Shown here: positions 4,221-64,000 of the stretch, in pieces
Layout of the letters: every line of letters begins with the position of its first letter
How positions within the stretch are numbered: position 1 is the first letter of the stretch
Assembly (NCBI GenBank): GCA_026983795.1
Contig: JALSTI010000058.1
Location: 10,092 to 74,091 of the forward strand
Reading direction: 5' to 3'
Length of the DNA stretch: 64,000 nucleotides
Source: Melioribacteraceae bacterium
GTDB lineage: Bacteria; Bacteroidota; Ignavibacteria; Ignavibacteriales; Melioribacteraceae
The notes under the pieces: generated by a model
Told to the model about the DNA's origin: nothing
The model's database searches: none
What the model saw: the letters and a program-made list of their open reading frames with translations, nothing else
Program-made: the position numbers and the translations under genes

Positions 4221-4844
4221 TTAACTTCCTATATTTTCCAACTTATTTATTTCATTAATTATTTGTTTATGAATTTCTTCAATTGAGTTTAAACCGTTTA
4301 TTATTTTAAAGCGTTTTTCCTTCTCTGCAATTTTCAGATAGCCCATTCTAACATCTTCGTAAAATTTATTTTTCGATATTTCAATTCTATCTAGCTGTTG
4401 CTGAGTTAATTTCCGTTTTCTTTTATTCACCTCTTGCACAGGAATGTCTAGAAAAAAAGTAATATCAGGTTCCGCTCCTTTAATAGCAAAATTCTGAAGC
4501 GGAATAACAAAATCCAAGTCAATTCCCCGCCCATAACCTTGATAAGCTATAGACGAGTCGTGAAACCTGTCTGAAATAACAAAAGTTCCTTTCTCAATTG
4601 ACGGAATTATAATTTGCTTTACCAATTGTACTCTGCTTGCGGTAAACAGCAACAATTCGGTAAGGGGAATCATTTCATTATTATCGCGGTCTAATAACAA
4701 GTCTCTTATTTTTTCGGAAATTTTAGTACCGCCCGGTTCTCTTATAATTTTAACCGCTTTGTTCCGTTTAATTAAGTACTCTTTTAATAATTCTACTTGT
4801 GTGGATTTGCCGCAAAAATCCAATCCTTCGAAAGTTATAAACAT
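4221..4844 (-). CDS. tmk: Thymidylate (dTMP) kinase
   Basis: The 207-aa ORF has the P-loop FITFEGLDFCGKSTQ, the DRF motif (SDRFHDSSIAYQG) and a typical length. Confidence 0.92.
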   Translation of the reverse strand: MFITFEGLDFCGKSTQVELLKEYLIKRNKAVKIIREPGGTKISEKIRDLLLDRDNNEMIPLTELLLFTASRVQLVKQIIIPSIEKGTFVISDRFHDSSIAYQGYGRGIDLDFVIPLQNFAIKGAEPDITFFLDIPVQEVNKRKRKLTQQQLDRIEISKNKFYEDVRMGYLKIAEKEKRFKIINGLNSIEEIHKQIINEINKLENIGS

Positions 4845-4845
4845 G

Positions 4846-5757
4846 TTAATATCTTTTAATTATGTAGTCTAATCTTTTTGGTTTTATATCAACCAATTTT
4901 GTTTTAGGAGGGATTTTAACTTTAGGTTCAATTGCACCGACAGTATCCCTTAAAGCTTGCACAAAATTTACATAAGCTTTAATATCATTCTCATTTAATT
5001 TACTTAAAATTTTAATTCCGCCTCGCAAAACGACTCTAATTTTATTCGGAGTTAATACAAGTTGTTCGTTGGCAGGAACGCCAACGGTTTGAACCGGTAC
5101 ATTTTCTAACGTTTTATCCACAATTTTTTGAACATCAAGCGTAATTTTACATTTATCAACGTTATAATTGATAAAGGGAATTTTCTCTAAGTTAATTACT
5201 TCGGAAACCGAATCATCGAGTCCTTCAAAAACTCTTAATTCCGTTTTAACAAGCGAAATATTTTTTACTTTACTTTTAGGTCCGATAACCACAATGGAAT
5301 CCGGTTCCACTTTTATATTGGAAACCAATCCATAACCGGGTTTAAAATTAAATGTTACAATGGGAATTACTTCTACCTTTTTACTTCTGACTTGTTCAAT
5401 TGTAAAGCTGACCGTTTGAGGCGAAGTTTCTACAATTTGAAGCGTTGAAGAAATCCAAGGATTATTTTCAAGTTCATTACGAATAGAAACGGTTTGATGT
5501 TTTCTTTTTCCTTTGCAATAAATATAAAATTTGGGATTTCGTCCAACTGTATGTTGTGCAAGCTGCCAGCCTTGTCCTTTAATACCCAATGAAACCGTAG
5601 TTGCCGAATAGGAACTAAGCGCATATCCTTCGGGAATGTTTTTAAATTCAATAGGTAATCTTAAATTGATTGTATAATCACCCGAGAACGAAACATATAC
5701 CCAAAGCAGTGTGGAAAAGATAACGATCAGTATTATTGGAATAATTTTCTTTTTCAT
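4846..5757 (-). CDS. YbbR/CdaR-like domain protein (membrane-anchored)
   Basis: The 303-aa ORF has an N-terminal TM helix (IIPIILIVIFSTLLWVYV) followed by repeated beta-rich modules, as in YbbR-domain proteins. No diadenylate cyclase gene is adjacent. The assignment rests on overall pattern only. Confidence 0.55.
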   Translation of the reverse strand: MKKKIIPIILIVIFSTLLWVYVSFSGDYTINLRLPIEFKNIPEGYALSSYSATTVSLGIKGQGWQLAQHTVGRNPKFYIYCKGKRKHQTVSIRNELENNPWISSTLQIVETSPQTVSFTIEQVRSKKVEVIPIVTFNFKPGYGLVSNIKVEPDSIVVIGPKSKVKNISLVKTELRVFEGLDDSVSEVINLEKIPFINYNVDKCKITLDVQKIVDKTLENVPVQTVGVPANEQLVLTPNKIRVVLRGGIKILSKLNENDIKAYVNFVQALRDTVGAIEPKVKIPPKTKLVDIKPKRLDYIIKRY

Positions 5758-5770
5758 ATCTTTTAAATAT

Positions 5771-5796
5771 AAAAAAACTCCACGAGTAGTGGAGTT
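5771..5796 (-). terminator. Rho-independent terminator downstream of the BMC shell gene pair
   Basis: The minus strand reads AACTCCAC-TACTC-GTGGAGTT followed by TTTTTATATTT. That is an 8-bp stem, a 5-nt loop and a T-run, starting 27 nt after the stop at 5823. Confidence 0.8.
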
Positions 5797-5822
5797 CTAA
5801 AATACATTTTGACAAGTAATTT

Positions 5823-6425
5823 TTACCTCATACTTTTAAAGAATTCCAGCAATTGAGATCTGTTAGCTTTAGAAATTTGCCGACCGAAAATTGGGAAATT
5901 CTCAGTTGCCCTGGCTAAACGTCTTAATTGATGAACATTCATCTTTGCTAACTCAGCATCGGATGGAATTCCGGAAGATTCAGAAGTTTCCGTTTCTCTT
6001 TCGCCGGTCGATTCTTCGCTTTCGTCAATTTTTTTACTTTCTTCTTGTATGGATTCAACATGTTTCAGTTGTTCGGAAACTGCGGGTTTACCGGAAATTT
6101 CACTTTTCTTTTTTACTTGAGGTTTCTGCGCCTTGTCTTTTACTGTTTGTGCAACTTTATCAATTACTATTTGATCAATTTGATCGTCCGGTCTTGGTAT
6201 TACATGCGCGGAAACCAATTCTCCTACTCTTTGAGCGGCTGCGGTTCCGGCATCAACAGCGGCTTTTACTGCAGCCACCTCGCCAACAACTTTAACCAGC
6301 ATTAATGCTCCCGTAACCTTTTCCTTGCCAATTAATTGCACTTCTGCAGCTTTTGTCATTGCGTCGGCAGCTTCTATTGCTCCAACCAATCCTTTGGTCT
6401 CTATAAGACCTAGCGCTAAGTTCAT
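5823..6425 (-). CDS. BMC-H (Pfam PF00936-type) microcompartment shell protein with a ~115-aa non-BMC C-terminal extension
   Basis: Residues 1-85 ([37 protein letters not shown]...ELVSAHVIPRP) form a canonical single BMC domain with the D-x-x-x-K edge motif. The remainder is a Lys-rich segment, then an acidic S/E/T-rich linker, then a helical tail (AELAKMNVHQLRRLARATENFPIFGRQISKANRSQLLEFF). Confidence 0.85.
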   Translation of the reverse strand: MNLALGLIETKGLVGAIEAADAMTKAAEVQLIGKEKVTGALMLVKVVGEVAAVKAAVDAGTAAAQRVGELVSAHVIPRPDDQIDQIVIDKVAQTVKDKAQKPQVKKKSEISGKPAVSEQLKHVESIQEESKKIDESEESTGERETETSESSGIPSDAELAKMNVHQLRRLARATENFPIFGRQISKANRSQLLEFFKSMR

Positions 6426-6440
6426 AATAATAGACTAAAA

Positions 6441-6722
6441 TTATTTGCTTCTTTTAGGTAAAATTAATTCCACATCCGAATGAGGTCTTGGAATTACATG
6501 AACCGAAACCAATTCACCGACACGCTGTGCTGCGGCTGCACCGGCATCTGTAGCAGCTTTAACAGCGCCAACATCACCGCGAACCATAACGGTAACATAA
6601 CCGCCGCCAATTGTTTCTTTACCAATTAACTCAACTTTTGCAGCTTTAACCATAGCATCAGCCGCTTCAATTGAACCAACCAAACCTTTGGTTTCAATCA
6701 TTCCTAATGCGTCAAGTGTCAT
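6441..6722 (-). CDS. BMC-H (Pfam PF00936-type) microcompartment shell protein
   Basis: [80 protein letters not shown] is a textbook BMC hexamer domain. The track ORF starts at a TTG at 6734. I prefer the ATG at 6722 because GGGAG lies 5 nt upstream of it. Confidence 0.88.
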
Positions 6723-6755
6723 ATGTGCTCCCAAATTTGGTTTAAATACTTTGTG

Positions 6756-6784
6756 AAAATAGCTTATAAAGATAAAAATGTCAA
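6756..6784 (-). promoter_or_regulatory. Candidate sigma70-type promoter for the BMC shell gene pair
   Basis: The minus strand reads TTGACA, a 17-nt spacer (tttttatctttataagc), then TATTTT. The element ends 33 nt upstream of the ATG at 6722. This is a pattern match only, and the promoter consensus of this lineage is unknown to me. Confidence 0.4.
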
Positions 6785-6802
6785 ATTATAAATTCATTAG
6801 TT

Positions 6803-7231
6803 TTAGTTTTGTTCATTTAAAAAGTCTTCTAAAATTACCGCTGCGGCATATTTATCGATTAATTCTTTATTTTTTCTTTTCTTCTTTGATTTAACCGATT
6901 CTAAAATTTTTTCTTTTGCAATCGCCGAGGAATATCTTTCATCGAATAAAATTACCGGAATATTGGTTTTACTTTCAAATTTCAGCTTAAATTTATCCAC
7001 TAGCTGGGTACTCGTAGATTTTTCCCCGTTTTCTTTAAGCGGGTAACCAAGTATAATTTTTTCAATTTCGTACTCTTCAATTATTTTTAATATCGATTTA
7101 ATTAAATTATTATCGTTTTTTAAAGTAACCAAGGGATACGAAAATATTCCAAGCGGATCGGAAATTGCTATTCCAACCCGTACATGTCCATAATCAATAG
7201 CTAAAATTCTTTTTTTCGGTTTCAGAGTCAT
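6803..7231 (-). CDS. ruvX: Holliday junction resolvase-like / pre-16S rRNA nuclease RuvX (YqgF)
   Basis: YqgF signature ILAIDYGHVRVGIAISD is present, along with ...ILFDERYSSAIAKE. I place the start at the internal ATG 7231 (MTLKPKK...). The longer track ORF (to 7297) would overlap rel by 62 nt. Confidence 0.85.
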   Translation of the reverse strand: MTLKPKKRILAIDYGHVRVGIAISDPLGIFSYPLVTLKNDNNLIKSILKIIEEYEIEKIILGYPLKENGEKSTSTQLVDKFKLKFESKTNIPVILFDERYSSAIAKEKILESVKSKKKRKNKELIDKYAAAVILEDFLNEQN

Positions 7232-7235
7232 TTGA

Positions 7236-9407
7236 TTAATTTGCAGATTCAAATCTTCTTGCGCTAAATATTCCTTTATTTTTGCGCAAACGTTCAAGGA
7301 GTCTATTTAAATGCTCCAAATCTTCCACATAAACGGTTATTTGCCCTTCAAATTGTGAATCGTAAGTATTAATATTAACCGACTTGATATTAGTATCTTT
7401 GAATGTAGTAATGCTATTAGAAATATCCTTTAAAATTCCCGGTTTATCTTCGCCCAAAATAGTAATACCTGCAACAAACAATTTACCGTTGGTATGCGGC
7501 CAATCAACAGGGACCAATCTATCTTCGTTTTTTTCGGCCATTTGAATTAAGTTGGAGCAATTCTTTCTGTGAATTTTAATTCCTTCTCCAATTGTCACAT
7601 ATCCAACAATGGGATCACCGGGAATTGGGTTACAACATTTGGCAAAACTGTAGGAAATTCCTTTGTGCTCCCCTTCTACCAATACACCGCCAGAACCGTC
7701 GCGGGCAATTTTAATAAAATTATCGAATTTCAGTTCGTTTGTTTGGGTTGGTTCGGCAGGCGCAGGAGGATTAAGAATCGATTCCAAATCAACTTTATCT
7801 TGAGCAATAGCCGAATAAAAAGCCGATGTATTTTCGAACTTAAGTTTTCTAATTAATTTTTGAATATCATCTTGATTAAAAGTAAGTTTCAATTTTTTAA
7901 TTTTTTTCTGCCAAATTTGTTTTCCGGCTTCAACAATTCTATCTTCTTCGCGTTTAAGGTATTTTCTGATGTTAGATTTTGCTTTATGTGTTTGAACAAA
8001 CTGTAGCCAGCTTTTATTAGGATGTTGATTTTTAGATGTAATAATTTCAACCCTGTCACCGCTATGCAAAATTGTATTAAGAGGAACAATCTTTCCGTTC
8101 ACTTTAGCGCCGATGCAATGAAAACCAACTCTGCTATGAATTTCGAAAGCAAAATCAACGGGTGTGGAATTTATAGGAAGTCTTTTTAAATCGCCTTTAG
8201 GAGTAAACACATAAATTTCATCTTGATATAAATTAAGTTTAAAACTTGCAATTATTTCTTTTGTTGCTTCGTCTTTTGAAGCTGTTTCAAAAATATCCCT
8301 AATCCAATTGACCCATTCTTCTAAATCTTTATCGCTTGTAACCAAATTTTCTTTGTATTTCCAATGTGCCGCAACACCGCGTTCAGCTATTTCGTGCATT
8401 TTACGTGTTCGTATTTGAATCTCCACCATCCTGCCGTCGGGTCCGATTACCGTATTATGAATTGATTGGTAATTATTCTTTTTGGGAATAGAAATAAAAT
8501 CTTTAAACCTATCAGGAATAGGAGTAAACAATTGATTGATAATACCCAAAACATAAAAACACTCATTATTATCATCATTTTCCAAAATTATTCTAATTGC
8601 AAGTAAATCGTAAATATCTTCCAGAGGCTTATTTTGCTTTATCATTTTTCTGTAAATGCTGTAAAAATGTTTCGGTCGACCACTAATTTCAAATTTCAGA
8701 TCATGTTCTTTCAATCTTTCTGCAATGGGCTGTGTAATTTTTTTAATATACTTTTCGCGTTCTTCCCGTGTTTCGTTTAATTTTTTTGCAATTTGGCTAT
8801 ATGCTTCGGGATTCAAAAATTTGAACGCAAGGTCTTCCATTTCCCATTTTATTCGCGCAAGACCGAACCTGTGGGCAAACGGAGCATAAATTTCAAGCGT
8901 TTCTTTAGCAATTCTTCTTTGCTTATGCGGAGGGACAAATTCCAATGTACGCATATTGTGTAACCGATCAGCAAATTTAACCAATATTACCCTTACATCT
9001 TTAATCATTGACAAAAGCATCTTTCTATAATTTTCAGCTTGAGTAATATTTTGCCCTCTAAATACACCGCCTATTTTTGTAACACCGTCAACAATTTCGG
9101 CCACTTCTTTTCCGAATTCTTGAACAATAAAATCCAAACTGATATCGGTATCTTCCACAACATCGTGCAGCAAAGCACTAACGACCGAAATATCATCCAA
9201 AGGCATTTCTTCGGCAACTATTTTGGCAACTTGAACGGGATGAACAAAATATGGTTCCCCCGAAGCCCGGAAATCGTTCTTGTGTGCTCCGTAGCTTAGT
9301 TGAAAGGCTTTGGTTATTAGGTCTTCATCAACACTAACCAAATTTTTTCTGCACGACTCTAATAACTGCTCTAACAATTGGTTATATTTCGGGTTAAGTA
9401 TTTCCAT
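7236..9407 (-). CDS. rel: Bifunctional (p)ppGpp synthetase/hydrolase, RelA/SpoT family
   Basis: The 723-aa ORF has the HD hydrolase motif (FVHPVQVAKI...LLHDVVEDT) and the synthetase core (YQSIHNTVIGPDGRMVEIQIRT). A TGS domain (IYVFTPKGDLKRLP) and a C-terminal ACT-like domain follow. Confidence 0.93.
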   Translation of the reverse strand: MEILNPKYNQLLEQLLESCRKNLVSVDEDLITKAFQLSYGAHKNDFRASGEPYFVHPVQVAKIVAEEMPLDDISVVSALLHDVVEDTDISLDFIVQEFGKEVAEIVDGVTKIGGVFRGQNITQAENYRKMLLSMIKDVRVILVKFADRLHNMRTLEFVPPHKQRRIAKETLEIYAPFAHRFGLARIKWEMEDLAFKFLNPEAYSQIAKKLNETREEREKYIKKITQPIAERLKEHDLKFEISGRPKHFYSIYRKMIKQNKPLEDIYDLLAIRIILENDDNNECFYVLGIINQLFTPIPDRFKDFISIPKKNNYQSIHNTVIGPDGRMVEIQIRTRKMHEIAERGVAAHWKYKENLVTSDKDLEEWVNWIRDIFETASKDEATKEIIASFKLNLYQDEIYVFTPKGDLKRLPINSTPVDFAFEIHSRVGFHCIGAKVNGKIVPLNTILHSGDRVEIITSKNQHPNKSWLQFVQTHKAKSNIRKYLKREEDRIVEAGKQIWQKKIKKLKLTFNQDDIQKLIRKLKFENTSAFYSAIAQDKVDLESILNPPAPAEPTQTNELKFDNFIKIARDGSGGVLVEGEHKGISYSFAKCCNPIPGDPIVGYVTIGEGIKIHRKNCSNLIQMAEKNEDRLVPVDWPHTNGKLFVAGITILGEDKPGILKDISNSITTFKDTNIKSVNINTYDSQFEGQITVYVEDLEHLNRLLERLRKNKGIFSARRFESAN

Positions 9408-17896: not shown

Positions 17897-20878
17897 TTAT
17901 TTAACGACTGCTATTTTAATAATCTTGTAATCGGATTTATTTAATCCTTTGGCTTCCACCCGCGCCAAATAAGCACCGCTTTGGATATTAGACACATCCC
18001 AAGCTATTTCGTTTTCGAATCCTCCGGTTGCGTTGAATTTTAATTCGTCTATAAAATCACCGGCTAAATCGAAAATTTTTATATCTATCAAAGCGTCTTC
18101 CGAAACGTATGTTCTTATAAAAGTTTGGTTTCCATAAACCGGATTGGGCCAATTATAAGTTCTGTTCTTCGGAAAGAATTCTTTTGTAATATTAACTGTT
18201 TGATGATTATCGACAAATGAGTTGTTAAATCCGTTTCCATACTCCGTTCCTGACACAATTTTTAAAGGGTAATCCAATTCCCAGTTAATCAAATAATTTT
18301 CATCGGTTAAAACGCTTAAAATACCTTTGCCAGAAGAGGATTTTGAAATTCCGGCGGATGTTATTTTAGAGCCGGCAGAAAGCGGAAACGGATAGATATT
18401 TTGCGCCGTTTGCGATGATACAAGATTTATTTGTCCGTCTCCGGAAAAATTTATCAACTCGGTTTTCCCGTCGCTGTCAATATCAATTCCTAACGGTGTT
18501 CCACTAAAACTATTTTCGTTAATTAATTTTACGGGAAAATTTAAAGCTGAACTGCCAACCAAATTATAAGCCATAATTTTATCTCTTCCGTTAAAGACGA
18601 TATAATTTTCACCGTCATTAAAAAGGTTTGCCAACGTAAATGTATTAACGGAATCATGAATAACAAACCGGTTTATAACTTTACCTTTTTTAATTACACT
18701 AAACTTCTTCCCGCCGGAAAGCACAACGGCGATATACTCGTTATTTTTGTTTTTACTTAAAATAATTTTATCTATTTTCTCTTGAAACTCAGTTTGTAAA
18801 TTTTCCGAAGTATTTAATATAAAATCCGAGGCACCAATAAAATAAGTTCCGTCAATTGCAATATGTTTAACCGGTTTTCCGGAAATAAAATCATTTGTTT
18901 GTAAAAGTGAAACCGAATTGGAATTCAAATTATATGAATACTTATTTAACTTTCCCGTTTCACTGCCGGCATAAAAAGTTAAACTGTCCGCCGATTCCGA
19001 AATTATAACCGGAATGCCCGAAAGATTTTCGGCTGTTAAAAAATTTGTTGTTAGGACGGCGGTGTCTGAAAACGAAACCACATTTATTTTCTTACCGGTA
19101 AATCCTACTAATACATCATTGCTTTGCAAATTTGCAATTGCAGGTGTAACATTGCTGAAACTATCTATACTTGCAGTTTTTTGCAAGGCTTTGTTAAACA
19201 TCATTAAATTTAAATTATCAAGAATAAAGGTATTGCCATTGGAATTATATAAATATGATTTACTTGTTTTAGGTTGACCGGATAAATCCAGTTTACCTGA
19301 ATTCATCAAATTAATATTTGACGACCCGAAACTTAAGGAGAAAGACATTTTATTTGAAATATCCGAAAATCCGGTAAGATTAACCAAACTGTTGGACCCG
19401 TTATGTGCTTTGGAACTAGGCTTGGAATTAGGAGTAAGAGCATTTTCATAAAACTCAGACGGATTGGATGCATACCAAAAATCTTCTTGCGTACCTTCAC
19501 CTTCCGAAACATCACCAAGAAAATTGGTAAACTTTTCGCCAATATCGTTTATACCGTCGGCTTCAACAACCTCAACGCCTCTGTGGTCCGGATCGGCATT
19601 AATTTTATTAAGCGATAATTTTTCTTTTATCACGTTGTTATCTATGTGCCAAATAACAATTCCGCTTCCCGGCAAAGCCCAATCATATTCATCAACATCT
19701 ACAACTACACCGCTGATTGCATCGACGTTAAAATATATAAAATCATCTTCGTCTTTCGAAAATGATTTTGTTAAGGTTTCCCCGTTAACTTTATACGTAA
19801 TATTTGCTCCGTTTTTATTTACGTCGCGGTTTCTATTTTCAATTAAAAAATACTCATCCGAATTAATAGGGACTTTTATTACGGTTGTATCCTGGAAAGA
19901 AGCGCTTAATCTTGTAGCAATATCAATTAAATTTTGGTTAGATTTAACAACTACAGGAGTTTCCCAACCCAAGAAAATTTTTTCCCATGCAGAAGGTTCG
20001 GGTGGGAACAATCCTCCGAAGGCAAAAATAGCCTGACCGTCCATTAATCCAAAACGACTGATAGCGCTTGACCCGTCTGATGTATTGAACAAATCCGGCA
20101 ATCCCAAATAACTGCCGATGCTGGAAACTATTAATCCGTTAATTGTTAGTTGAAACAGTACAGTTCCGCCGATGCCCGAAATTTCTCTGGATTCGGTTTC
20201 GGGAAGTATCAGACTGTTTTTAATAAAATAATTTCCGGAATTTACGGGAAAGCCCTTAAAGTTTTGTCCGTAAAGATTTTTCAACAAACTATTACTTAAA
20301 AAGATGGAAGGTAAATCTTTTTCGCTTCCGGTGGAACCAGGAGTAATAACATCACCGCCGGTACCTGCATGAAAAATCACAAACAAATCATAATTACTGA
20401 AATTAACTCCGTTAAAAATGGAATCTGCTTTTTGCCATACTTCCTTTGAAAAATCGGCAAGATTTAAGAAATTTTCATCCTTAGGAGGGAAATAGTCCCT
20501 CATTACTTTATCAACCGTAATAACTTTAGGATAAACATCAAAACTTAATTCAACATTTCCGCCGGAGACCTTATGATAATAATTTTTTGCAAATTCCAAA
20601 TGTTCCTTAAAATAACCGGCATTGTGCGGTAAAGGGTCTAAAATAGTAGTGCCGTAATCTTTTGAATATAAAGTTCCGAACTTGCCGGTACCTGCAGTCA
20701 AATCAAAATCGTCCGGTTGGAATTCCACCATAACTGCAAAAATCCTCACCGTATCGGTTGAATTGGCAGTTAAATTTTTAATGGAATTGGAGGGCATAAG
20801 TTTAGGAATAAAAGATTGGGCAGATAAACTGCCCAAACTAAAAATCAGCAAAAAGAGGATTAATTTTTTCATTTTCAA
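17897..20878 (-). CDS. T9SS-secreted M6 (immune inhibitor A)-like protein with a degenerate zinc site
   Basis: The 993-aa ORF has a signal peptide and M6-like landmarks (VIFHAGTGGD, LGLPDLF, GLMDG, PSAWEKIFLGW, GIVIWHID, VEVVEADG). SSIGS replaces HExxH. A type-A T9SS CTD lies at the end (NWPNPVYGNQTFIRTY...YLARVEAKG...KIAVVK). The start is TTG 20878 or ATG 20872. Confidence 0.7.
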   Translation of the reverse strand: MKMKKLILFLLIFSLGSLSAQSFIPKLMPSNSIKNLTANSTDTVRIFAVMVEFQPDDFDLTAGTGKFGTLYSKDYGTTILDPLPHNAGYFKEHLEFAKNYYHKVSGGNVELSFDVYPKVITVDKVMRDYFPPKDENFLNLADFSKEVWQKADSIFNGVNFSNYDLFVIFHAGTGGDVITPGSTGSEKDLPSIFLSNSLLKNLYGQNFKGFPVNSGNYFIKNSLILPETESREISGIGGTVLFQLTINGLIVSSIGSYLGLPDLFNTSDGSSAISRFGLMDGQAIFAFGGLFPPEPSAWEKIFLGWETPVVVKSNQNLIDIATRLSASFQDTTVIKVPINSDEYFLIENRNRDVNKNGANITYKVNGETLTKSFSKDEDDFIYFNVDAISGVVVDVDEYDWALPGSGIVIWHIDNNVIKEKLSLNKINADPDHRGVEVVEADGINDIGEKFTNFLGDVSEGEGTQEDFWYASNPSEFYENALTPNSKPSSKAHNGSNSLVNLTGFSDISNKMSFSLSFGSSNINLMNSGKLDLSGQPKTSKSYLYNSNGNTFILDNLNLMMFNKALQKTASIDSFSNVTPAIANLQSNDVLVGFTGKKINVVSFSDTAVLTTNFLTAENLSGIPVIISESADSLTFYAGSETGKLNKYSYNLNSNSVSLLQTNDFISGKPVKHIAIDGTYFIGASDFILNTSENLQTEFQEKIDKIILSKNKNNEYIAVVLSGGKKFSVIKKGKVINRFVIHDSVNTFTLANLFNDGENYIVFNGRDKIMAYNLVGSSALNFPVKLINENSFSGTPLGIDIDSDGKTELINFSGDGQINLVSSQTAQNIYPFPLSAGSKITSAGISKSSSGKGILSVLTDENYLINWELDYPLKIVSGTEYGNGFNNSFVDNHQTVNITKEFFPKNRTYNWPNPVYGNQTFIRTYVSEDALIDIKIFDLAGDFIDELKFNATGGFENEIAWDVSNIQSGAYLARVEAKGLNKSDYKIIKIAVVK

Positions 20879-22081
20879 CTAAATTCCTCTGGGAAATCCA
20901 TGATGTTTTTTAACGGGGTTGTTTCCCCAGCCAATAAGGATTGTAAATCTCATTGTGTCAGACAATGGATGATTTTCACCGTTCTTAAAAACATCCGTTG
21001 TTATATAACTAAAATCGAATCCGTATAAATCGTATCTAATTCCCGCACCGAGGGTTACAAATTTTCTGTTTCCGAAAGAAGGATCTTCGTAAAAGAATCC
21101 GGTTCGTACGGCAAATTTAAAATCATCGCCGCCATACCAGTATTCCAATCCCATTGACGTTACTACATCACGTATCTCTTCATTAAACGAATTATCAAAC
21201 CAGGAAGTAAAAATAGCTTTGTAAAATTTATCTCTATGACCTGCGCTATCGGCTTTACCAACCAATAATTTACTAAAATCTATTGTGTAAGTAAGAGAAT
21301 TAAAATCATCTTCAAAAAGTCTAAACGCAAATCCCAATCTGAAATTGGTAGGAATCGGGTCGGCTTGCGCTTGATCGATGTAATAAATAGCCGGACCGAT
21401 ATTACTTAAATTAGCGCCAATACTAAGACGATTACTAAAATCGCCGATTAAAGGAAGCGTTAATTTTGCCGGTCTCCACATTGCTGCAATATCAAAACTA
21501 ACCGATGTAGCCACGCCCGATCCTTGTTCTCCGGCTGTTGGCTTGTCGGATAGTCTGCTATGTATTAATCTGAAATTCAATCCCAGACCCCAATCCTCGC
21601 TAAGCTTGGTTGCATAACCGAGAGTTAAAGCAGCGTCAAAAGATCTAAAAGTACCAATTGGTTCTGGACTATCTTCACCGGTACGTATAAATTCACCGAA
21701 GTTCATATAGGTTATACTCGCAGAAATGCTACCGTCCAAATCTTCAATATATTGGCGGTAAGTAAGATAGTCGTAAAAAAGATCGTTTAACCCGAATTGC
21801 GGCAACCAATTACTGTGCGTAATACTTACTTCGGAGCCGTCCAGAAATGCCAGACCAGCAGGGTTCCAAAATATTGCAGCTGAATTATCTGCAAGTCCCC
21901 CGCCCGATTCTCCAATACCGCCCGATCGTGAATCCGGCGCTAATAGCAAAAATGGCACGGCTGCTTCGCCTTGAGCATTTATCTTTATCTGGGTACTCAG
22001 CATCATCGTTAATATCAGCATAAGAAAGCCAAAACGTTTCATTGTTATTCCTCCATTTATATGGTTATTTTTATTTCTCAT
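20879..22081 (-). CDS. porV: Type IX secretion system outer-membrane channel/shuttle protein PorV (LptO)
   Basis: The 400-aa ORF has the PorV N-terminal signature AAVPFLLLAPDSRSGGIGESGGGLADNSAAIFWNPAGLAFL and a beta-barrel character. It lies immediately downstream of porU. Confidence 0.85.
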   Translation of the reverse strand: MRNKNNHINGGITMKRFGFLMLILTMMLSTQIKINAQGEAAVPFLLLAPDSRSGGIGESGGGLADNSAAIFWNPAGLAFLDGSEVSITHSNWLPQFGLNDLFYDYLTYRQYIEDLDGSISASITYMNFGEFIRTGEDSPEPIGTFRSFDAALTLGYATKLSEDWGLGLNFRLIHSRLSDKPTAGEQGSGVATSVSFDIAAMWRPAKLTLPLIGDFSNRLSIGANLSNIGPAIYYIDQAQADPIPTNFRLGFAFRLFEDDFNSLTYTIDFSKLLVGKADSAGHRDKFYKAIFTSWFDNSFNEEIRDVVTSMGLEYWYGGDDFKFAVRTGFFYEDPSFGNRKFVTLGAGIRYDLYGFDFSYITTDVFKNGENHPLSDTMRFTILIGWGNNPVKKHHGFPRGI

Positions 22082-22099
22082 TATTATAAAAATTTAATT

Positions 22100-25000
22100 T
22101 TACCTAATTACAGCTAATTTTCCAAGAACATTTTTACTGTAACTGCCGTCAACGGAATTAACGATTAATTTATACAAATAGGTTCCGTTGGAAATCATCG
22201 TTCCGTCCTCATCCTTACCATCCCAATTTATTTTAACAAACCGGTCCGTAACGTTAAATTTGCTTATTATTTTTATCAATCTTCCGCTAATTGTATAAAC
22301 TTTTATTTCAACATTTAACGGTTTATCAAGATTTTGTTGAAATGTAAAATAAGTATTAGTTTTAAACGGATTAGGATAATTGAAAACATCTTTAATCACT
22401 AAATCGTTGGAATTAACAACAGTAAAACGACTTTCGGAAATTGATACATTGTTAAATACATCCCAAGCTTTAATTTTAATTTTGTAATCTCCGGGGTCCA
22501 TTCCCGTAAATTTATAATTTATTACTCCGGATTTACCGAACGAATCTACATCGCCGATAAAAAAATTAGTCAAATCAATCGGGTTTTCATCATCATCATT
22601 TATTATGGCTTCAAGCTTATGACCAACACCCAGACCGGTTGTGTTAATTCCGGTTTCATCTTGTATTTTAACCAACAGCGTAAAATCGGGATTCACCAAA
22701 TACGAATCGGCATTATTGAAATTGTCATAATAAATCTTAATATCCGGACCTTTTCCGTCGTTCGAAATAGTAGAATCGGTTCCGCCGACAATTATATTTT
22801 TAGTAAACCCAACGCCATCGGTGTTATCGTTGTAAACATACGATACTATTTTACCGTTTTTATTTCCGTACGATATATCTTTTGGAACCACGAATCCGGT
22901 AGAAAATTTTCCGTTGTTTACTTTTGTTCTTCCTCTAAAAATCACGCCTCCGTGAACAACCATATTGTAATTTATATCTTTCAAATAAATTTGTTTATCC
23001 GAATCAAATACGGTTATAATAGATTCGCCGTTAAAATCATTTGGTGTTCCGTCAAGATTTTTAACCTCTCCGGTAATTACAACGTTTCCCAATGCTTTTA
23101 TTTGAATATTAGTAGTGATGCTTGTATGATTAACAGAATCGATATCTGCAGGTAACACGGGCTGATTTAATCTTAATGCAGGGTCGCAGAACAAATGAAA
23201 TTTTTCATCGTTTTCGCCGGTTCTGTTTTGTTTCATTTGATAAAACGCCGTTCCAATCGGATAAGGTAAGCCTTGCGAATCTTTTGGTCCGAGAAGTTTT
23301 CTATAAAACACACCATTCAGAGCGGCATTTTCTTGCGAATATACAGGTCGAACAGCGCTTAAAGCTCCTATCATACCATAATTATTCAGGACTAACATTT
23401 CCTCAACGCCGCTTTGGTTTTCGGGGTCGTCAAATTTCCCGAAATCGCACGTAGCTGCGGTTAAAAAAAAGTAATCTTTATTTCTCAATTGGGGAATCGA
23501 AGTCTCGCGAACAAACACCTGCTCGTGCGCCCAAAGTTCCGGACTTCCGTGACCGATATAGTTTAATATTAAAGTTCCGTTATTAATTGCATTTATTATT
23601 GCTTTATTAACTTCCGGCTTTCTTCTTCCCAAACCGGTTATAACAGTAGGATAATTAGAAAGATAAATTTTATTCTGATCAAAAAACGGAGGAATATTGT
23701 TTTTAGATAATCTTTCGGATTGGTCGGTATGCAACGAGCCGTCGTCTCGCTTAGACGTTAAACCATCGTCGGCAACTAAAGTTATTGTATTTCTCCAAAG
23801 TCCTTTTTCAGAATTTTTTTCGTAAAAAATTATCTTGTTAACAACGCTTTCTGCTTCTTCAAGCGATGAAACCGGCAATCTTCCAATAGCAATATCGGCA
23901 GAGTTATCATCTCCTATTAAACGCGAATAATAATCATCCATGGCATAAGATATTATCTCATTCATCGATTGTAAAGTTTGAAAAGTAGGTACAAAATTTT
24001 TATTCTTACCCAGCAAGTTGTAATAATCGAAATCTCCGTCGCCAAAGAACAAAACAAATTGCGGTTTTACTTGCCAATTATTTAGCGCATCTTGCAAAAA
24101 ATTTCTTATTGCGGTTGGGTCTAACATTCCGGAAGAATATTCGTTAAAAATTTCATCAACATAAACTACAACCGAAGATAATTTGTGAGGAGCTTCATTC
24201 TGTCTGTATTCTTTCAAACGTTCGGCTTGATCTTTAAATTTTTCGTTAGTCACAATTATGTATTTTGCGCCGGGATCTATACCGTGAATATTGGAGTTTT
24301 TCATTTTTTTAAAATTCTCGGGCTTTTTAAATTTTGATGTTTCAACTGCATAATATTTTGATATTTTCCCGCTTTGTTCGTTAACTTGAAAAGTAATTTG
24401 CGGACCGTTAACGGTTAAGCCGGAAATTAATTTAACATTAGAATAATCGGAAACGTCAAATACTTGTACATTGCTGCTTGGGAACCCGCTTAATTTGTAT
24501 TGTGTGTTCCCGCCAACCGGATTTGAAAAGAATAATAAATTTCCCGCCACTGCATACAAAGACGAATAATATTCAATTTCATAAAAATCCAAATATCCTT
24601 TTGCAGAACTTGAAGTGGGATTGAAAGTAAATTTTAAAACACTTCTGTCATCCGGCAAAGCGCCTGAATATGAAGCATGGGCAAACAATATTTTGCCTAT
24701 TGTATAATCGGGTTGAACCCGCGGTCCCGATACGTTTTGCGAACTAATAAGTTTTCCGTTTTCGTAAAGACTAATATTACTTATTTTTTTGGAAGCGTTA
24801 ATAAATTGGTAAGAAACTTTTAAGAGAGAATCCGCAACATAATTTTTCACTTCGTTTACATAAGACCTTGACTTGGAAGAAAGAGAAAATTCATCACCAA
24901 CGTCAATTAAACCGGATCTTATTAAATTCCGTTTATCTTCATCTAAAAATTTAAATGCTTTGGTAATGGTCTGTATTTTAGGATTCGGGTCATTGTTAGA

Positions 25001-26068
25001 TGTTTTAAGCTGCATTCTTTTCCCGGGGTTTCCGCCGGAGGTTATCCAATAATAATTAGCTTTGGAGTACCAATTTTTATTCCTAACTATTTTACTTTTT
25101 GAGGAATTAAAAAACCAAAAGTCAACGCCTCGTCCGTAAAAAAGGATGTAATCATCAGCATCAAATTTTCCGTCTTCTTCTCCCCGGATGTAAATTGCAT
25201 TTTCCACTAAACCATCAGGCCGCTGTGCGGTAACTTTCCAGGGCAAAATGTATCCGCCGTTATTATAAATTTTAATGGTTCGCGGGTCTACGGTTTCGGG
25301 ATCAATTCCAAGTTTGGGCAGCATATCCCTTGTAATTTTATAAATTCCTTCTTCGGGTGCTTCGAACGTATACCAAGTACCGTTAGCTAAAACCGAATTT
25401 ATTCCCCCTTTTTGCAATGTGCTTTTTTTAGTTCCCCAATTTCTTGCCACGTTATAGTTAATAATAACATTCTTAAGTAAATCGTCATTTATTAAACTCC
25501 GGTTGTTTGCAGTGTTACCGAAATTAACTCTAAAAATTATTTTAGTAAAAACTTTAATTGTATTATCGTTAGGTAAAAACCGGATGGGATGAATTAATAT
25601 CTTTTGCACTTTAAGTTCTCTTACCAAACCGAAATCACCGAATGTGACCAAGTCGGGATTTGTAAAATTACTGTAATCGTTGCCGGGTTCATAATTTTCA
25701 ACGGCAAGTCCGTTTTCTTTTATTAAATCTGGTTTAGGAAGCAGCTTACCTTTCAAGGTTTTAAATTCGGAGCCGATTATTTGGATTGTATTTCCGAATT
25801 CACCCGGCACACCAACATTAACAACAGAAACAAGAATTCCGGGTTCACCTATTTTTACCGAAGGATCCGTTTGGGCGTTATCAATGCTAATACGAATAAA
25901 TTTACCGGAAGTAAGTTTTACGACCGAACTTTGAATATTTACAGGAGAATATTGCAGAACAACTGACGAGCTGCTGGAAGAAATGATTTTTATATTTCCG
26001 CCGGCAAAGACAGCCGAATACAAAAAAAGGGAAATAATCAATATAGATATTCTGCTTTTTACGTACAT
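22100..26068 (-). CDS. porU: Type IX secretion system sortase PorU (C25 gingipain-like peptidase)
   Basis: The 1322-aa ORF has C25 catalytic-region motifs NYIGHGSPELWAHE (His) and FLTAATCDFGKFD (Cys). Its C-terminus resembles a T9SS CTD (FNYPNPFKTNTYFTF...). The classic porU-porV adjacency is present. Confidence 0.85.
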   Translation of the reverse strand: MYVKSRISILIISLFLYSAVFAGGNIKIISSSSSSVVLQYSPVNIQSSVVKLTSGKFIRISIDNAQTDPSVKIGEPGILVSVVNVGVPGEFGNTIQIIGSEFKTLKGKLLPKPDLIKENGLAVENYEPGNDYSNFTNPDLVTFGDFGLVRELKVQKILIHPIRFLPNDNTIKVFTKIIFRVNFGNTANNRSLINDDLLKNVIINYNVARNWGTKKSTLQKGGINSVLANGTWYTFEAPEEGIYKITRDMLPKLGIDPETVDPRTIKIYNNGGYILPWKVTAQRPDGLVENAIYIRGEEDGKFDADDYILFYGRGVDFWFFNSSKSKIVRNKNWYSKANYYWITSGGNPGKRMQLKTSNNDPNPKIQTITKAFKFLDEDKRNLIRSGLIDVGDEFSLSSKSRSYVNEVKNYVADSLLKVSYQFINASKKISNISLYENGKLISSQNVSGPRVQPDYTIGKILFAHASYSGALPDDRSVLKFTFNPTSSSAKGYLDFYEIEYYSSLYAVAGNLLFFSNPVGGNTQYKLSGFPSSNVQVFDVSDYSNVKLISGLTVNGPQITFQVNEQSGKISKYYAVETSKFKKPENFKKMKNSNIHGIDPGAKYIIVTNEKFKDQAERLKEYRQNEAPHKLSSVVVYVDEIFNEYSSGMLDPTAIRNFLQDALNNWQVKPQFVLFFGDGDFDYYNLLGKNKNFVPTFQTLQSMNEIISYAMDDYYSRLIGDDNSADIAIGRLPVSSLEEAESVVNKIIFYEKNSEKGLWRNTITLVADDGLTSKRDDGSLHTDQSERLSKNNIPPFFDQNKIYLSNYPTVITGLGRRKPEVNKAIINAINNGTLILNYIGHGSPELWAHEQVFVRETSIPQLRNKDYFFLTAATCDFGKFDDPENQSGVEEMLVLNNYGMIGALSAVRPVYSQENAALNGVFYRKLLGPKDSQGLPYPIGTAFYQMKQNRTGENDEKFHLFCDPALRLNQPVLPADIDSVNHTSITTNIQIKALGNVVITGEVKNLDGTPNDFNGESIITVFDSDKQIYLKDINYNMVVHGGVIFRGRTKVNNGKFSTGFVVPKDISYGNKNGKIVSYVYNDNTDGVGFTKNIIVGGTDSTISNDGKGPDIKIYYDNFNNADSYLVNPDFTLLVKIQDETGINTTGLGVGHKLEAIINDDDENPIDLTNFFIGDVDSFGKSGVINYKFTGMDPGDYKIKIKAWDVFNNVSISESRFTVVNSNDLVIKDVFNYPNPFKTNTYFTFQQNLDKPLNVEIKVYTISGRLIKIISKFNVTDRFVKINWDGKDEDGTMISNGTYLYKLIVNSVDGSYSKNVLGKLAVIR

Positions 26069-43351: not shown

Positions 43352-44353
43352 TTATTTCAAAAGTAACATTTTTCGTGTTTGGACGAAAGATCCGGCTCTT
43401 AATTGATAATAATAAACTCCGCTGGAAAGACTATTTGCATCAAAATTTACCGTGTAATTTCCAGCTTGCTGTTTAGTGTTTACCAAACCGGCAACTTCAT
43501 TTCCCAATACATCATAAACTTTTAATTGAACTAAATAACTATTGGAACCTTTGGGAATGGAATAGCTTATTGAAGTAGTGGGATTAAAAGGATTGGGATA
43601 GTTCTGTTCCAAATTAAATTTTGAAGGTAAAGACTCGCCTTTTGAATTATTGCTTGTAATCAAGCTTTTACCACCCACAATTTTAGAAAAATGCGATAAA
43701 TAAACGCAAAGTTTATTTGGGTTGCCGGGAACAATTTCCCACGTTAGTCCGTCTGTGTAAAAGTCGCCGCCTAAAAAGTAAGCAAACCCAACCGCACTCG
43801 GATCGATGCCTAATTGTTTCAGAAAATCCAAAAATTGCTGCGTCATGGGAATGCATAGTTTGGCTTTTTTGTCGTTTTTGAAATAATAAAATTCATCCGG
43901 ATTATGAACTCCGGATTTAGAACCCACGACTTCAATGCCCAGGAAAAGGAAGAACGGGTTATTTCCGCCGCTCGGATCTACAAATCTATCTGAATTATTG
44001 CAATCCAATTGTTCTAAATTTATATTCAACATAACATCTTCGTCCAAAGCTCCTTCTTCAATTCCCAGCTCAGTACCAATTAAAGCATCGTATAAAACCT
44101 GCCAATTAGAAAGATAATCTGGTAACCCGAAAGGTGTCATCTTAAAGGATTCTCCTTCGTTAAACGAACCGCTTGCAGCTACAACCGGTTGATTTAAGCA
44201 AGGTGATTTAACAGTGAATTTATAATGAATCAGATGCTTGGTTGTAACGGAATTCGGATTTTTACCGTTAGATTTTGGTGAAGCAAACGCCGAACCCACT
44301 ATAAATATAAACCCCAGTAAAAGTAAATATTTTTTTTTCATCTTGACTCCCAT
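43352..44353 (-). CDS. Secreted protein of unknown function with a type-A T9SS C-terminal sorting domain
   Basis: The 333-aa ORF has a signal peptide. The C-terminal ~85 aa read NYPNPFNPTTSISYSIP...VYDVLGNEVAGLVN...SSGVYYYQLRAGSFVQTRKMLLLK. Confidence 0.75.
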   Translation of the reverse strand: MGVKMKKKYLLLLGFIFIVGSAFASPKSNGKNPNSVTTKHLIHYKFTVKSPCLNQPVVAASGSFNEGESFKMTPFGLPDYLSNWQVLYDALIGTELGIEEGALDEDVMLNINLEQLDCNNSDRFVDPSGGNNPFFLFLGIEVVGSKSGVHNPDEFYYFKNDKKAKLCIPMTQQFLDFLKQLGIDPSAVGFAYFLGGDFYTDGLTWEIVPGNPNKLCVYLSHFSKIVGGKSLITSNNSKGESLPSKFNLEQNYPNPFNPTTSISYSIPKGSNSYLVQLKVYDVLGNEVAGLVNTKQQAGNYTVNFDANSLSSGVYYYQLRAGSFVQTRKMLLLK

Positions 44354-61678: not shown

Positions 61679-64000
61679 TTACTTTAGAAGCAACATTTTC
61701 TTTGTTTGGATAAAATTATCACTAAACAAAGTATAGAAATAAATTCCGGAGGTTAAATTCTTTGCATCAAAGTTAGCGTTGTAGTTTCCGGGACTCATTC
61801 TTTTATTTACCAAAGTCGCAACTTCTTCTCCCAATACATTGAATACCTTTAAGACAACATGCGCATTTCGCGGAACTGTAAATTTAATATTTGTTGAAGG
61901 ATTAAATGGATTGGGATAATTTTGATTTAGATCAAATGCAGTCGGCATTATACTTAATTCACGTGATATTGATGTTTCAATACTGCCAACTAAAAGTAAT
62001 AAATTATTTGTGCTGTTAACTTGATCCGACGCTACAATATCAACAACACCATCTTCATTAATATCTTCGGCAGCAATTCCATATACACGCACTGCTCGAT
62101 TTGTGATATCTTTTATACTTTCAAAAGAACCATCCGAGTTCAAAGCTAAACGCAGCGGGAAAATACCTGCCGATCCACTACCGAAAATAATATCAAGATC
62201 ATCATCTTTATCAACATCCACAAGTTTAAGCACATCGGTACTTTCCTCAAGAACTGCTATAGTTGAATCGGAGAAATTGGCTTGGCCATTATTTAATAAG
62301 ACCGCTATATCCCTCTTGGCACTTCCCACGCTTGTACCTTTATCAAATCCAACTATAATATCCAATGTATTGTTACCATCCCAATCACCAATATCGAGCG
62401 CTGAACTTTTTTGACCGGTAACGAGGGTAGAACGTGAAAATACTTCAGCTCCATTATTTAAATATAAAACGACGGTGTTGTTAGTATCCAAAGTTGTAAC
62501 AACAATATCCAAATCTCCGTCATTATCCATATCCCCAATTTTAATCTTTTGAGGTTCATTTAGATTGGGATCTACAACCTTTGGGGTGAACAGACCCGAA
62601 CCATTATTCATATACCATAGAATTTTGTTTTCTCCATAGGCACACACTGCAATGTCAAGGTTGTTATCAGAATTAATATCCGAAACATCACAACCCAATG
62701 GATTATTTAGGCTTTCATCAACAACAAATCGCTTCCAACCCGGACCGTTTTTCTTATACCAAAAGAGACTGCTGTCTTCGTAAGCAGTTGCAATCACATC
62801 AGTAAACCCATCATCATCAAGGTCTCCAAGCGCTAAATCCGCAGGGAAAGAAATGTTGTCATCAATTCGATTTTCAATAAATGAAGTTTTACCCCGATTT
62901 TCATACCATACGATCTCATCTTCTTCGGTTTTCACGCCATTATCACCGGCAGTTACAACTATATCCAAATCACCGTCGTTGTCAATGTCTGTAATTTGAG
63001 TAAATCTAACAGCTTCAATTTCACTATACAAATAATGCCGATAAAGGTTCCCTCCTATATTTTCGAACCAAGATAAATCACCATCAACATTACCGTTTTC
63101 CGGAAAGACAATATCCATGTCTCCATCTCCGTCAATATCTCCTACAGACATTTGACCTGGTCCCCGGTTATCCCAATTAAGTTCAAGAAATTCTTTTCTA
63201 AATACCATATTAGATTCTTGGTAAAGTATAGACAGATAATCATCACCTACATTTTGTCTAATCACATCGTTTAATCCGTTTCCATCAAAATCGGCAACAA
63301 CAATATCGCCCCCTAAATCAATCCCATCTATATCAATAAGTACTGAATTAAAATTATTTGAACCATCAAGAAAATATAATCCACCAAACCCGACACCGCT
63401 AAACGTTAATATATCTTTAACACCGTCATTATTTAAATCAGCTATCGCTAGTCCGTTAGCAACATTTGAGTATTGCCCATTATTGACGAATAACGTTTTA
63501 ACAGAATCAAATAAACCGCTTCCATTATTATATAAAATTTTAAAACCGTTTAATCCTCCCCCTCCAAAAACTATGTCAACATCGCCATCGTTATCAATAT
63601 CATCAACTTCAACTAAAGTTACTTGAATTACCGTATCGGTAATCTCTTGTTTACTAAAATTAAGGTTTCCATCATTCCAATATATACTTACAGTAGGTCT
63701 GTTGAACCCCACGGACACTATATCAATATTACCATCTTTATTAAAGTCAGCAATCGCAGATTGATCGGTTCTAATGCTGTCTTCTATTAAAATTTTATTG
63801 TAATTGCCATTATTCTGTTTTTGAAATAATGTTAAAGCACCGGAATTAATACTAACATACCTATCCGATACAACGTAGTCTAAATCACCATCATTATCGA
63901 AATCACCCAAATCAATATCTACAGGGAAGTTTAAATCTTCAAATAAAGTGTGTTTAGGGTATTGCCCGGTTCCATCATTTTCCAACCATTCTACGGAAGA
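61679..64000 (-). CDS. FG-GAP/VCBS-repeat (integrin-alpha-like propeller) protein with a type-A T9SS C-terminal sorting domain; N-terminus outside the window
   Basis: More than 10 repeats of the DxDxDGDxD Ca-binding loop are present (GDFDNDGDLDYV, DIDNDGDVDIV, DIDGDGDMDIV ...). The CTD reads NYPNPFNPSTNIKFTVP...SGIYFYTLFSDNFIQTKKMLLLK. The reading frame stays open upstream of the track's TTG at 63985 (..SVEWLENDGTG..), so the gene continues past 64000. Confidence 0.85.
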   Translation of the reverse strand, partial: SSVEWLENDGTGQYPKHTLFEDLNFPVDIDLGDFDNDGDLDYVVSDRYVSINSGALTLFQKQNNGNYNKILIEDSIRTDQSAIADFNKDGNIDIVSVGFNRPTVSIYWNDGNLNFSKQEITDTVIQVTLVEVDDIDNDGDVDIVFGGGGLNGFKILYNNGSGLFDSVKTLFVNNGQYSNVANGLAIADLNNDGVKDILTFSGVGFGGLYFLDGSNNFNSVLIDIDGIDLGGDIVVADFDGNGLNDVIRQNVGDDYLSILYQESNMVFRKEFLELNWDNRGPGQMSVGDIDGDGDMDIVFPENGNVDGDLSWFENIGGNLYRHYLYSEIEAVRFTQITDIDNDGDLDIVVTAGDNGVKTEEDEIVWYENRGKTSFIENRIDDNISFPADLALGDLDDDGFTDVIATAYEDSSLFWYKKNGPGWKRFVVDESLNNPLGCDVSDINSDNNLDIAVCAYGENKILWYMNNGSGLFTPKVVDPNLNEPQKIKIGDMDNDGDLDIVVTTLDTNNTVVLYLNNGAEVFSRSTLVTGQKSSALDIGDWDGNNTLDIIVGFDKGTSVGSAKRDIAVLLNNGQANFSDSTIAVLEESTDVLKLVDVDKDDDLDIIFGSGSAGIFPLRLALNSDGSFESIKDITNRAVRVYGIAAEDINEDGVVDIVASDQVNSTNNLLLLVGSIETSISRELSIMPTAFDLNQNYPNPFNPSTNIKFTVPRNAHVVLKVFNVLGEEVATLVNKRMSPGNYNANFDAKNLTSGIYFYTLFSDNFIQTKKMLLLK

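Follow-up and report, generated by a model that had tools for sequence, protein, structure and literature searches.

In the 64,000-nucleotide stretch of contig JALSTI010000058.1 from a Melioribacteraceae bacterium that was analyzed here (referred to below, in its whole length, as the window), a gene on the minus strand encodes a shell protein of the bacterial microcompartment (BMC) class BMC-H with a long C-terminal extension. Judged by its sequence, this 200-amino-acid (aa) protein is the extended shell paralogue of a FRAG1-type bacterial microcompartment of Ignavibacteria. It consists of a BMC domain, a disordered linker, and a folded, charged head. The head is conserved across the lineage and lies at the extreme C terminus, and the gene sits with a second BMC-H gene in a conserved block of housekeeping genes. 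By analogy with other extended shell proteins, we tentatively propose, with slightly less than even confidence, that the protein would act as an outward-facing tether that positions the FRAG1 compartment, its head binding a polyanionic partner.

The 200-aa sequence quoted in a first-pass annotation of the window is the exact translation of the open reading frame (ORF) at 5823–6425 (−), and the three segments that it quoted from the extension were found verbatim. The region that it singled out, 5823–6170, covers aa 86–200 of the protein together with its stop codon. The protein carries one non-permuted BMC domain, which was detected above the Pfam gathering score (PF00936; aa 4–79, E = 4.5e-26, 91.1 bits against a cut-off of 24.5 bits, profile positions 1–75 of 75). 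In a full-length AlphaFold2 model based on 78 homologues, the predicted local distance difference test (pLDDT) score was above 90 for aa 1–80, and the order of secondary-structure elements agreed with the BMC fold. A further helix was predicted at aa 82–92, which we take, from general knowledge of the BMC fold, to belong to that domain. Almost all residues at aa 93–148 had pLDDT values below 50 and were taken as disordered. By contrast, the last ~50 aa gave block-mean pLDDT values of 84–95, with helices at 156–161, 164–173, 182–186, and 189–199, and the same four helices were obtained when the tail was modeled alone (mean pLDDT 85.9). The anatomy described in the first-pass annotation, a BMC domain followed by a disordered polyampholyte linker and a small folded head, was borne out by Pfam and AlphaFold2. 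A non-BMC extension is indeed present, but its start was placed too early, at ~aa 86; because the helix at aa 82–92 is read as part of the BMC fold, the extension begins near aa 93. The net charge was +2 for aa 86–104, −5 for aa 105–152, and +5 for aa 153–200; these values were computed on our own boundaries, which differ from the Lys-rich stretch (aa 96–114) and the acidic stretch (aa 123–151) delimited in the annotation. Two ORFs of 134 and 86 aa, at 5891–6295 (+) and 6045–6305 (+), lie wholly within the gene on the opposite strand. The minus-strand frame is strongly conserved at the protein level, and we treat them as by-products of this coding strand, whose low complexity probably produced them as artefacts.

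A search with the full-length protein returned well over a hundred clusters. Among the best 120 matches, the full-length homologues were 188–237 aa long and were covered at 99–100%, apart from one local alignment at 45%. Those with names came from Ignavibacteria, Melioribacteraceae, Melioribacter roseus, a Bacteroidota bacterium, and bacterium BMS3Abin04. Two alignments, of 26 and 78 sequences, showed high conservation of the BMC domain and of the last ~48 residues, and zero conserved columns in the linker between them. Across the 78 full-length homologues, which share 52–63% identity, 14 positions from P154 on were invariant and 7 more nearly so. The conserved head positions include V164, L167, R168, A171, R172, P178, I179, G181, R182, I184, S185, A187, N188, L192, and F196; P154 and positions of the N163/H165 type were only nearly invariant. 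Five basic residues (R168, R172, R182, K186, and R189) were invariant or near-invariant, and the invariant positions were also seen in alignments A2 and A4. This pattern of conservation is far beyond chance.

The head alone was then used as a profile against 1.84 billion cluster representatives. It returned 641 proteins at E ≤ 1e-3 and 290 at E ≤ 1e-10, and the head was nearly invariant across more than 250 sequence clusters and 266 species genomes. Whether orthologues conserve the tail had been named in the first-pass annotation as a check on its reading, and they do so strongly. The match lay at the extreme C terminus in all 150 representatives listed. A BMC domain was found by phmmer in 110 of the 149 newly returned representatives; apart from one apparent chimera (P0202), the remainder look like N-terminally truncated fragments or carriers of a degenerate BMC domain. 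No fusion of the head to a recognizable non-BMC domain was seen among these representatives. The head is therefore, as far as seen, not mobile among other protein families. A degenerate DNA pattern for PI[KHR]GR[EQD]IS[KR]A led to 266 confirmed loci among 185,579 species genomes. The best 80 of the 266, to which our locus-level comparisons across species refer, all belonged to named Ignavibacteria-type lineages or to organisms recorded as unclassified Bacteroidetes or bacterium.

In one clade (L164 10001–10804 and L165 10001–10804, both P0208; also P0195, P0214, and P0217), the extended paralogue has a degenerate BMC domain, for which phmmer gave no match and Pfam only a "weak" BMC match, with the head and the ruvX–BMC-H–extended BMC-H–ybbR synteny intact. 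Since this clade retains both, the head seems to be under more constraint than the shell domain. The linker, by comparison, varies from 49 to 321 aa across the family (median 69) and is rich in E (19.6%), K (16.1%), and S (9.6%). A linker motif, [ST]TIxRL[RK]xEALG, with a variant of the form L-x-x-L-R-x-E-A-x-x-E-L, occurs 20–35 aa upstream of the head in 105 of 259 family members (e.g., P0129, P0160, P0176, and P0208). Neither the window protein nor its closest relatives have it. Where present, the motif may fold as an amphipathic helix and either pack against the head or bind a partner.

The predicted layout of the head places a loop (aa 174–181) and a short helix (182–186) between the helices at 164–173 and 189–199. 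This arrangement resembles that of the Rho_N, SAP, and LEM domains of helix-extended-helix (HeH) type in several respects: the head is ~45 aa long, its first helix follows the pattern L-x-x-[LM]-x-V-x-x-L-R-x-L-A, the loop is extended and contains Gly, and the second helix opens with basic residues. It differs from these domains in its longer loop, in the extra short helix at aa 182–186, in an NFPIKGRxISKANR signature specific to the head family, and in its C-terminal location on a shell protein, and all matches to them are sub-threshold. In two Pfam scans of single sequences, no family was matched by more members than Rho_N, which was hit in 11 of 39 (best E = 0.0093) and, in a separate, more divergent set, in 22 of 105 (best E = 0.0018); SAP (3), Fan1_SAP (2), and Ish1 (1) were matched as well. 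When the tail model was compared with the PDB by Foldseek, Escherichia coli Rho was matched (9ff7_A; TM(query) 0.57, rmsd 2.4 Å, 45 columns, E = 4.9). In BFVD, proteins named "Rho termination factor N-terminal domain" were at ranks 1, 3, 8, 9, 10, 18, 20, and 47 and a SAP-domain protein was at rank 42; the matches listed there reach a TM of 0.69 and a probability of 0.94, all with E ≥ 0.3. These weak Rho_N and SAP signals all point the same way, and an HeH-type fold is the best-supported assignment for the modeled head and probably the correct one, although membership in Rho_N or SAP is not established.

A word-index search using the tail alone gave no candidates, no NCBIfam model covers the tail, and 50,697 phage records searched by tblastn with the tail yielded a single chance match (E = 6). 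Profile searches of PDB sequences (A2 and A4) remained at chance level, with the SAP domain of SIZ1 (2rnn) at E = 1.3–1.4; a fumarase match in the PDB was rejected as a chance-level hit via the string ENFPI.GR. In PHROGs, only weak matches were obtained, to phrog_31569 (unknown function) for 19 of 39 members and to endonuclease VII for 12 of 39. An encapsulation peptide is a single amphipathic helix of ~15–20 aa joined to a cargo enzyme via a flexible linker (PMC8217296). The first-pass annotation had allowed that the tail might behave as such a helix. This reading was rejected, since AlphaFold2 predicts a compact 48-aa head of four short helices, and the head is carried on a shell protein instead of a cargo enzyme.

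In the mechanism that we propose, the BMC domain would enter shell facets as a specialized hexamer, beside the canonical BMC-H encoded 15 nt upstream. Because the C terminus of a non-permuted BMC-H lies on the concave cytosolic face, the C termini would be on the cytosol-facing side, and six disordered polyampholyte linkers of 50–320 residues would project outward from each hexamer. Every linker would carry a small basic HeH-like (Rho_N/SAP-type) head at its end. The head would bind a cytoplasmic polyanion, most plausibly nucleoid DNA and less likely RNA, and this binding would anchor and distribute the compartments, in the way that Eut and Pdu compartments are served by their extended paralogues EutK and PduK. 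The analysis shows the domain architecture, the disorder of the linker, a folded head with its net charge, the strong conservation and exclusive C-terminal position of this head, and the conserved synteny. Nucleic-acid binding by the head, its HeH superfamily relationship, the outward topology, the identity of the ligand, and the positioning role are what we infer. A more far-reaching version, which we regard as unlikely, is a phylum-wide constitutive microcompartment with a nucleoid anchor of its own, in which each hexamer would display six HeH-type DNA-binding heads on long entropic tethers. If this were true, the organelle would ride the chromosome for its positioning and inheritance without a ParA/McdAB-type system, and EutK, PduK, and the window family would represent a general class of positioning adaptors that evolved independently with different heads.

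Several points weigh against the tether proposal. The Rho_N/SAP/LEM reading of the first-pass annotation stands as the best available fold assignment, but no HeH-family match was significant, and family membership is unproven. All Pfam matches fell under the gathering score: for Rho_N (PF07498, 24.9 bits), every relative stayed below it and the window tail alone gave no Pfam match at all; for SAP (PF02037, 23.9 bits), the best match reached 16 bits (E = 0.0055–0.12) and aligned only profile positions 2–17 of 37. The Rho_N match that was inspected aligned profile positions 1–17 of 43, and all five Pfam matches inspected cover helix 1 only (L-x-x-[LM]-N-V-H-x-L-R-x-L-A-R). The Foldseek E-values against the PDB and BFVD were all ≥ 0.3 and hence below significance. 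With hhalign, the tail profile gave nothing against residues 1–61 of E. coli Rho, and against 66 gammaproteobacterial Rho N termini it gave a P value of 0.044 over 14 columns of helix 1 only; these 66 sequences, extracted from 80 loci, are too narrow a set for a good Rho_N profile. HeH domains also mediate protein contacts, for example between LEM and BAF, and therefore an HeH fold does not in itself establish DNA binding. Conservation of the NFPIKGRxISKANR segment, in the loop and second helix, far exceeds that of typical SAP or Rho_N domains, which hints at a specific partner and not at generic DNA. In addition, the outward topology is carried over by analogy from other BMC-H proteins, and none of the papers found reports an experimental observation of a FRAG1 compartment.

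Because the surface-type residues of the head are so highly conserved, binding to a specific protein partner is a strong rival to binding of a polyanion. Here the head would be a protein–protein docking module outside the shell, using its HeH fold as LEM domains do and recruiting one cytosolic protein, such as a ParA/McdA-type ATPase, a cytoskeletal element, or an enzyme. Across the lineage, no or almost no variation is seen at residues N163, H165, R168, R172, K186, N188, and R189 or in the FPIxGR loop, and such conservation is commoner for a specific protein interface than for non-specific DNA binding. EutK and PduK lack an agreed mechanism as well, and an association with ParB has been proposed for EutK (PMC12487888). 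Nevertheless, we consider docking rather unlikely, since, among the proteins searched for within 8 kb (ParA was not searched for), no candidate partner gene is linked to the locus, whose neighbors are invariant housekeeping genes, and since the head is net basic and finds its best fold matches among nucleic-acid-associated Rho_N/SAP proteins.

Long disordered scaffolds such as CsoS2 and CcmM organize carboxysome cargo, and the extension could likewise face the lumen as a shell-borne cargo scaffold, a reversed form of encapsulation that would replace the peptides missing from FRAG genomes. These genomes give no match to hidden Markov models (HMMs) of encapsulation peptides (PMC8217296, Supplementary Data 2), their FRAG1 loci hold shell proteins only, and the short amphipathic linker motif described above would suit such a role. 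We find a luminal scaffold improbable, however, given that non-permuted BMC-H proteins have their C terminus on the concave face, which points outward, as stated for PduK (PMC9132943), that the head is predicted to be a folded four-helix domain and not a single amphipathic helix, and that the motif is missing from the window protein and those most closely related to it. We give an equally small chance to self-association without any external ligand, in which the basic head would bind the acidic distal linkers of adjacent subunits or shells and bring about clustering, condensates, or control of assembly. The linker is polyampholytic and rich in E and K, its distal half is acidic (family median net charge −5), and the head is basic (median +3). 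However, the net charge of the linker spans −78 to +17, and 39% of linkers are not net negative. With a charge so variable, the head has no conserved acidic target, and purely electrostatic contacts would not need its precise residue conservation.

FRAG1 was defined from 57 loci and described as "most prominent in Ignavibacteria" (Sutter et al. 2021, Nat Commun 12:3809, PMC8217296, Supplementary Data 2). It comprises fragmented loci with shell proteins only, in genomes that carry a BMC-P triplet and often a PduS/T pair, and the catalogue distinguishes a "standard" BMC-H from an extended paralogue, for which it draws the analogy with EutK (PMC8217296). The pair in the window agrees with this description. 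Read from the sequence, the edge motifs of the extended protein are KAAE, not KAAN, and PRPD, not PRPH (standard motifs per PMC8217296), which places it outside the standard BMC-H proteins by this criterion. The short canonical partner has KAAK and PRPH, and the difference between the two proteins matches the distinction made in the catalogue, identifying them as a FRAG1 pair. Since the protein class had already been catalogued together with the EutK analogy, the basic finding is not new. For this same protein pair, the catalogue is silent on the fold, boundaries, conservation, synteny, and function of the ordered domain, of which our analysis adds the first four. What is new here is the domain boundaries, the assignment of an HeH-like head, the housekeeping synteny, and the link to the positioning genetics of PduK and EutK; also new is that the head was seen only with BMC among recognizable domains and appears more constrained than the BMC domain. 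No paper on FRAG1 later than Sutter et al. 2021 was found.

The features of the locus are listed in Table 1. The extended gene lies 15 nt downstream of the canonical BMC-H gene, whose product scores above the cut-off of the NCBIfam EutM equivalog (139.5 against 133 bits), although there are no eut genes nearby; an automatic EutM label would mislead. A mechanical ORF of 97 aa at 6441–6734 (−) starts at TTG 6734. The start is probably ATG 6722, giving 93 aa, and is preferred because the orthologues are 93–94 aa long. These two are the only BMC genes in the window, and no BMC-P gene was found in the window or within 8 kb of the locus in 80 relatives. The gene order is upp–relA/spoT–ruvX–BMC-H–extended BMC-H–ybbR–tmk–ctpB, on one strand (4221–9407 (−)).

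Table 1. Coordinates of the BMC-H pair and associated features in the window
Feature	Position	Strand	Basis or remarks
Extended BMC-H paralogue gene	5823..6425	−	ORF list and sequence; 200 aa plus stop
BMC (PF00936) domain with its C-terminal helix	6150..6425	−	aa 1–92; Pfam and AlphaFold2
Disordered polyampholyte linker	5970..6149	−	aa 93–152; Lys-rich, then Glu/Ser/Thr-rich; pLDDT and lack of conserved columns
Conserved basic head, IPSDAELAKMNVHQLRRLARATENFPIFGRQISKANRSQLLEFFKSMR	5826..5969	−	aa 153–200; HeH/Rho_N-like predicted fold
Canonical BMC-H partner gene	6441..6722	−	93 aa from ATG 6722 (probable start); Pfam BMC E = 4e-30
Promoter-like site TTGACA-17-TATTTT between ruvX and the BMC-H pair	6756..6784	−	Consensus scan only, 10 of 12 matches; not evidence of function
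Intrinsic-terminator-like hairpin plus T-run	5774..5798	−	10-bp stem, 5-nt loop; starts 24 nt past the stop of the extended BMC-H gene; consensus match only

The housekeeping block was co-linear in ~70 of the 80 species loci, most exceptions being short contigs. The same gene order was found on Melioribacter contigs and on a 1.1-Mb JGI contig, and it was kept around very divergent members, namely a 453-residue protein and the degenerate-BMC clade. Within 8 kb of the BMC-H pair in the 80 loci, only the housekeeping block was linked among the proteins searched, which included BMC-P but not ParA, and in seven loci with Pfam-annotated neighbors the flanking genes were housekeeping or unrelated. 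The shell-gene pair is fixed among nucleotide, stringent-response, and RNA-processing genes. The promoter-like site, the terminator-like hairpin, and the conserved housekeeping block together fit a constitutive structural role. In Melioribacter, a gene for a DeoC-family aldolase (PF01791) lies ~9.4 kb downstream of the pair (L001 19997–20597; L002 20169–20597). DeoC-family aldolases are the signature enzyme family of sugar-phosphate SPU microcompartments, and the proximity could be a coincidence. Elsewhere in the window, large secreted proteins encoded at 17897–26068, 43352–44353, and 61679–63985 (all −) share a similar C-terminal beta-rich segment (e.g., ...NYPNPFNPTT...GVYFY...KMLLLK). By eye, this segment looks like a type-IX-secretion sorting domain, which fits the placement in Ignavibacteria/Bacteroidota.

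The extended protein bears on two questions, the positioning of metabolosomes and the role of FRAG1 compartments. Recent genetics ties the extended shell paralogues PduK and EutK to metabolosome positioning and inheritance without providing a mechanism. The window family offers a minimal test case, with a BMC domain, a disordered tether, and a near-invariant head of 48 residues that could be expressed alone. For FRAG1, the catalogue reports no cargo or function, and any ligand of the head would be the first functional handle. The modular design of a tether plus a head may also interest shell-surface engineers.

In EutK, the tail consists of a helix-turn-helix domain that follows a short linker. 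Like the window protein, EutK combines a BMC-H domain with a C-terminal, positively charged, small helical domain that has been proposed to bind nucleic acid (PMC12487888). When eutK was deleted in Salmonella, Eut compartments became polar and static, and the positively charged tail was proposed to bind nucleotides in a ParB-like manner (PMC12487888). The two tails, however, are not homologous. The NCBIfam EutK model (NF012010) scored 79 bits against a cut-off of 218 and was aligned only over model positions 1–105 of 166, the BMC part, and no EutK chain appeared in the PDB profile or Foldseek match lists for the tail; homology of the tail with EutK was therefore rejected. The window family also differs from EutK in having a disordered linker of 50–320 aa before its HeH-like head. 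PduK, too, is a minor paralogue of the BMC-H type; it has a flexible C-terminal extension, located on the outer face, and is needed for compartment distribution: its C terminus lies on the outward concave face, as in a non-permuted BMC-H, and Salmonella without PduK makes well-formed compartments that are stuck at the poles (PMC9132943). By contrast with the window protein, its extension is described as flexible or disordered, with no folded terminal head described (PMC12487888, PMC9132943), and no sequence similarity between PduK and the window tail was detected. The first-pass annotation had set a scaffold or nucleoid-associated role against that of a metabolic organelle. This contrast is unfounded, because the two best-studied metabolosomes, which are ordinary metabolic organelles, have functionally analogous extended shell proteins in EutK and PduK, and because a BMC-P triplet is also encoded in FRAG1 genomes (PMC8217296). 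The positioning of carboxysomes by McdB and McdA is similar in concept, in that a BMC shell is linked to the nucleoid and the organelles are distributed. McdB, however, is a separate adaptor that works with a ParA-type ATPase, whereas here no ATPase gene is linked (ParA was not searched for) and the putative adaptor would be fused to the shell protein itself.

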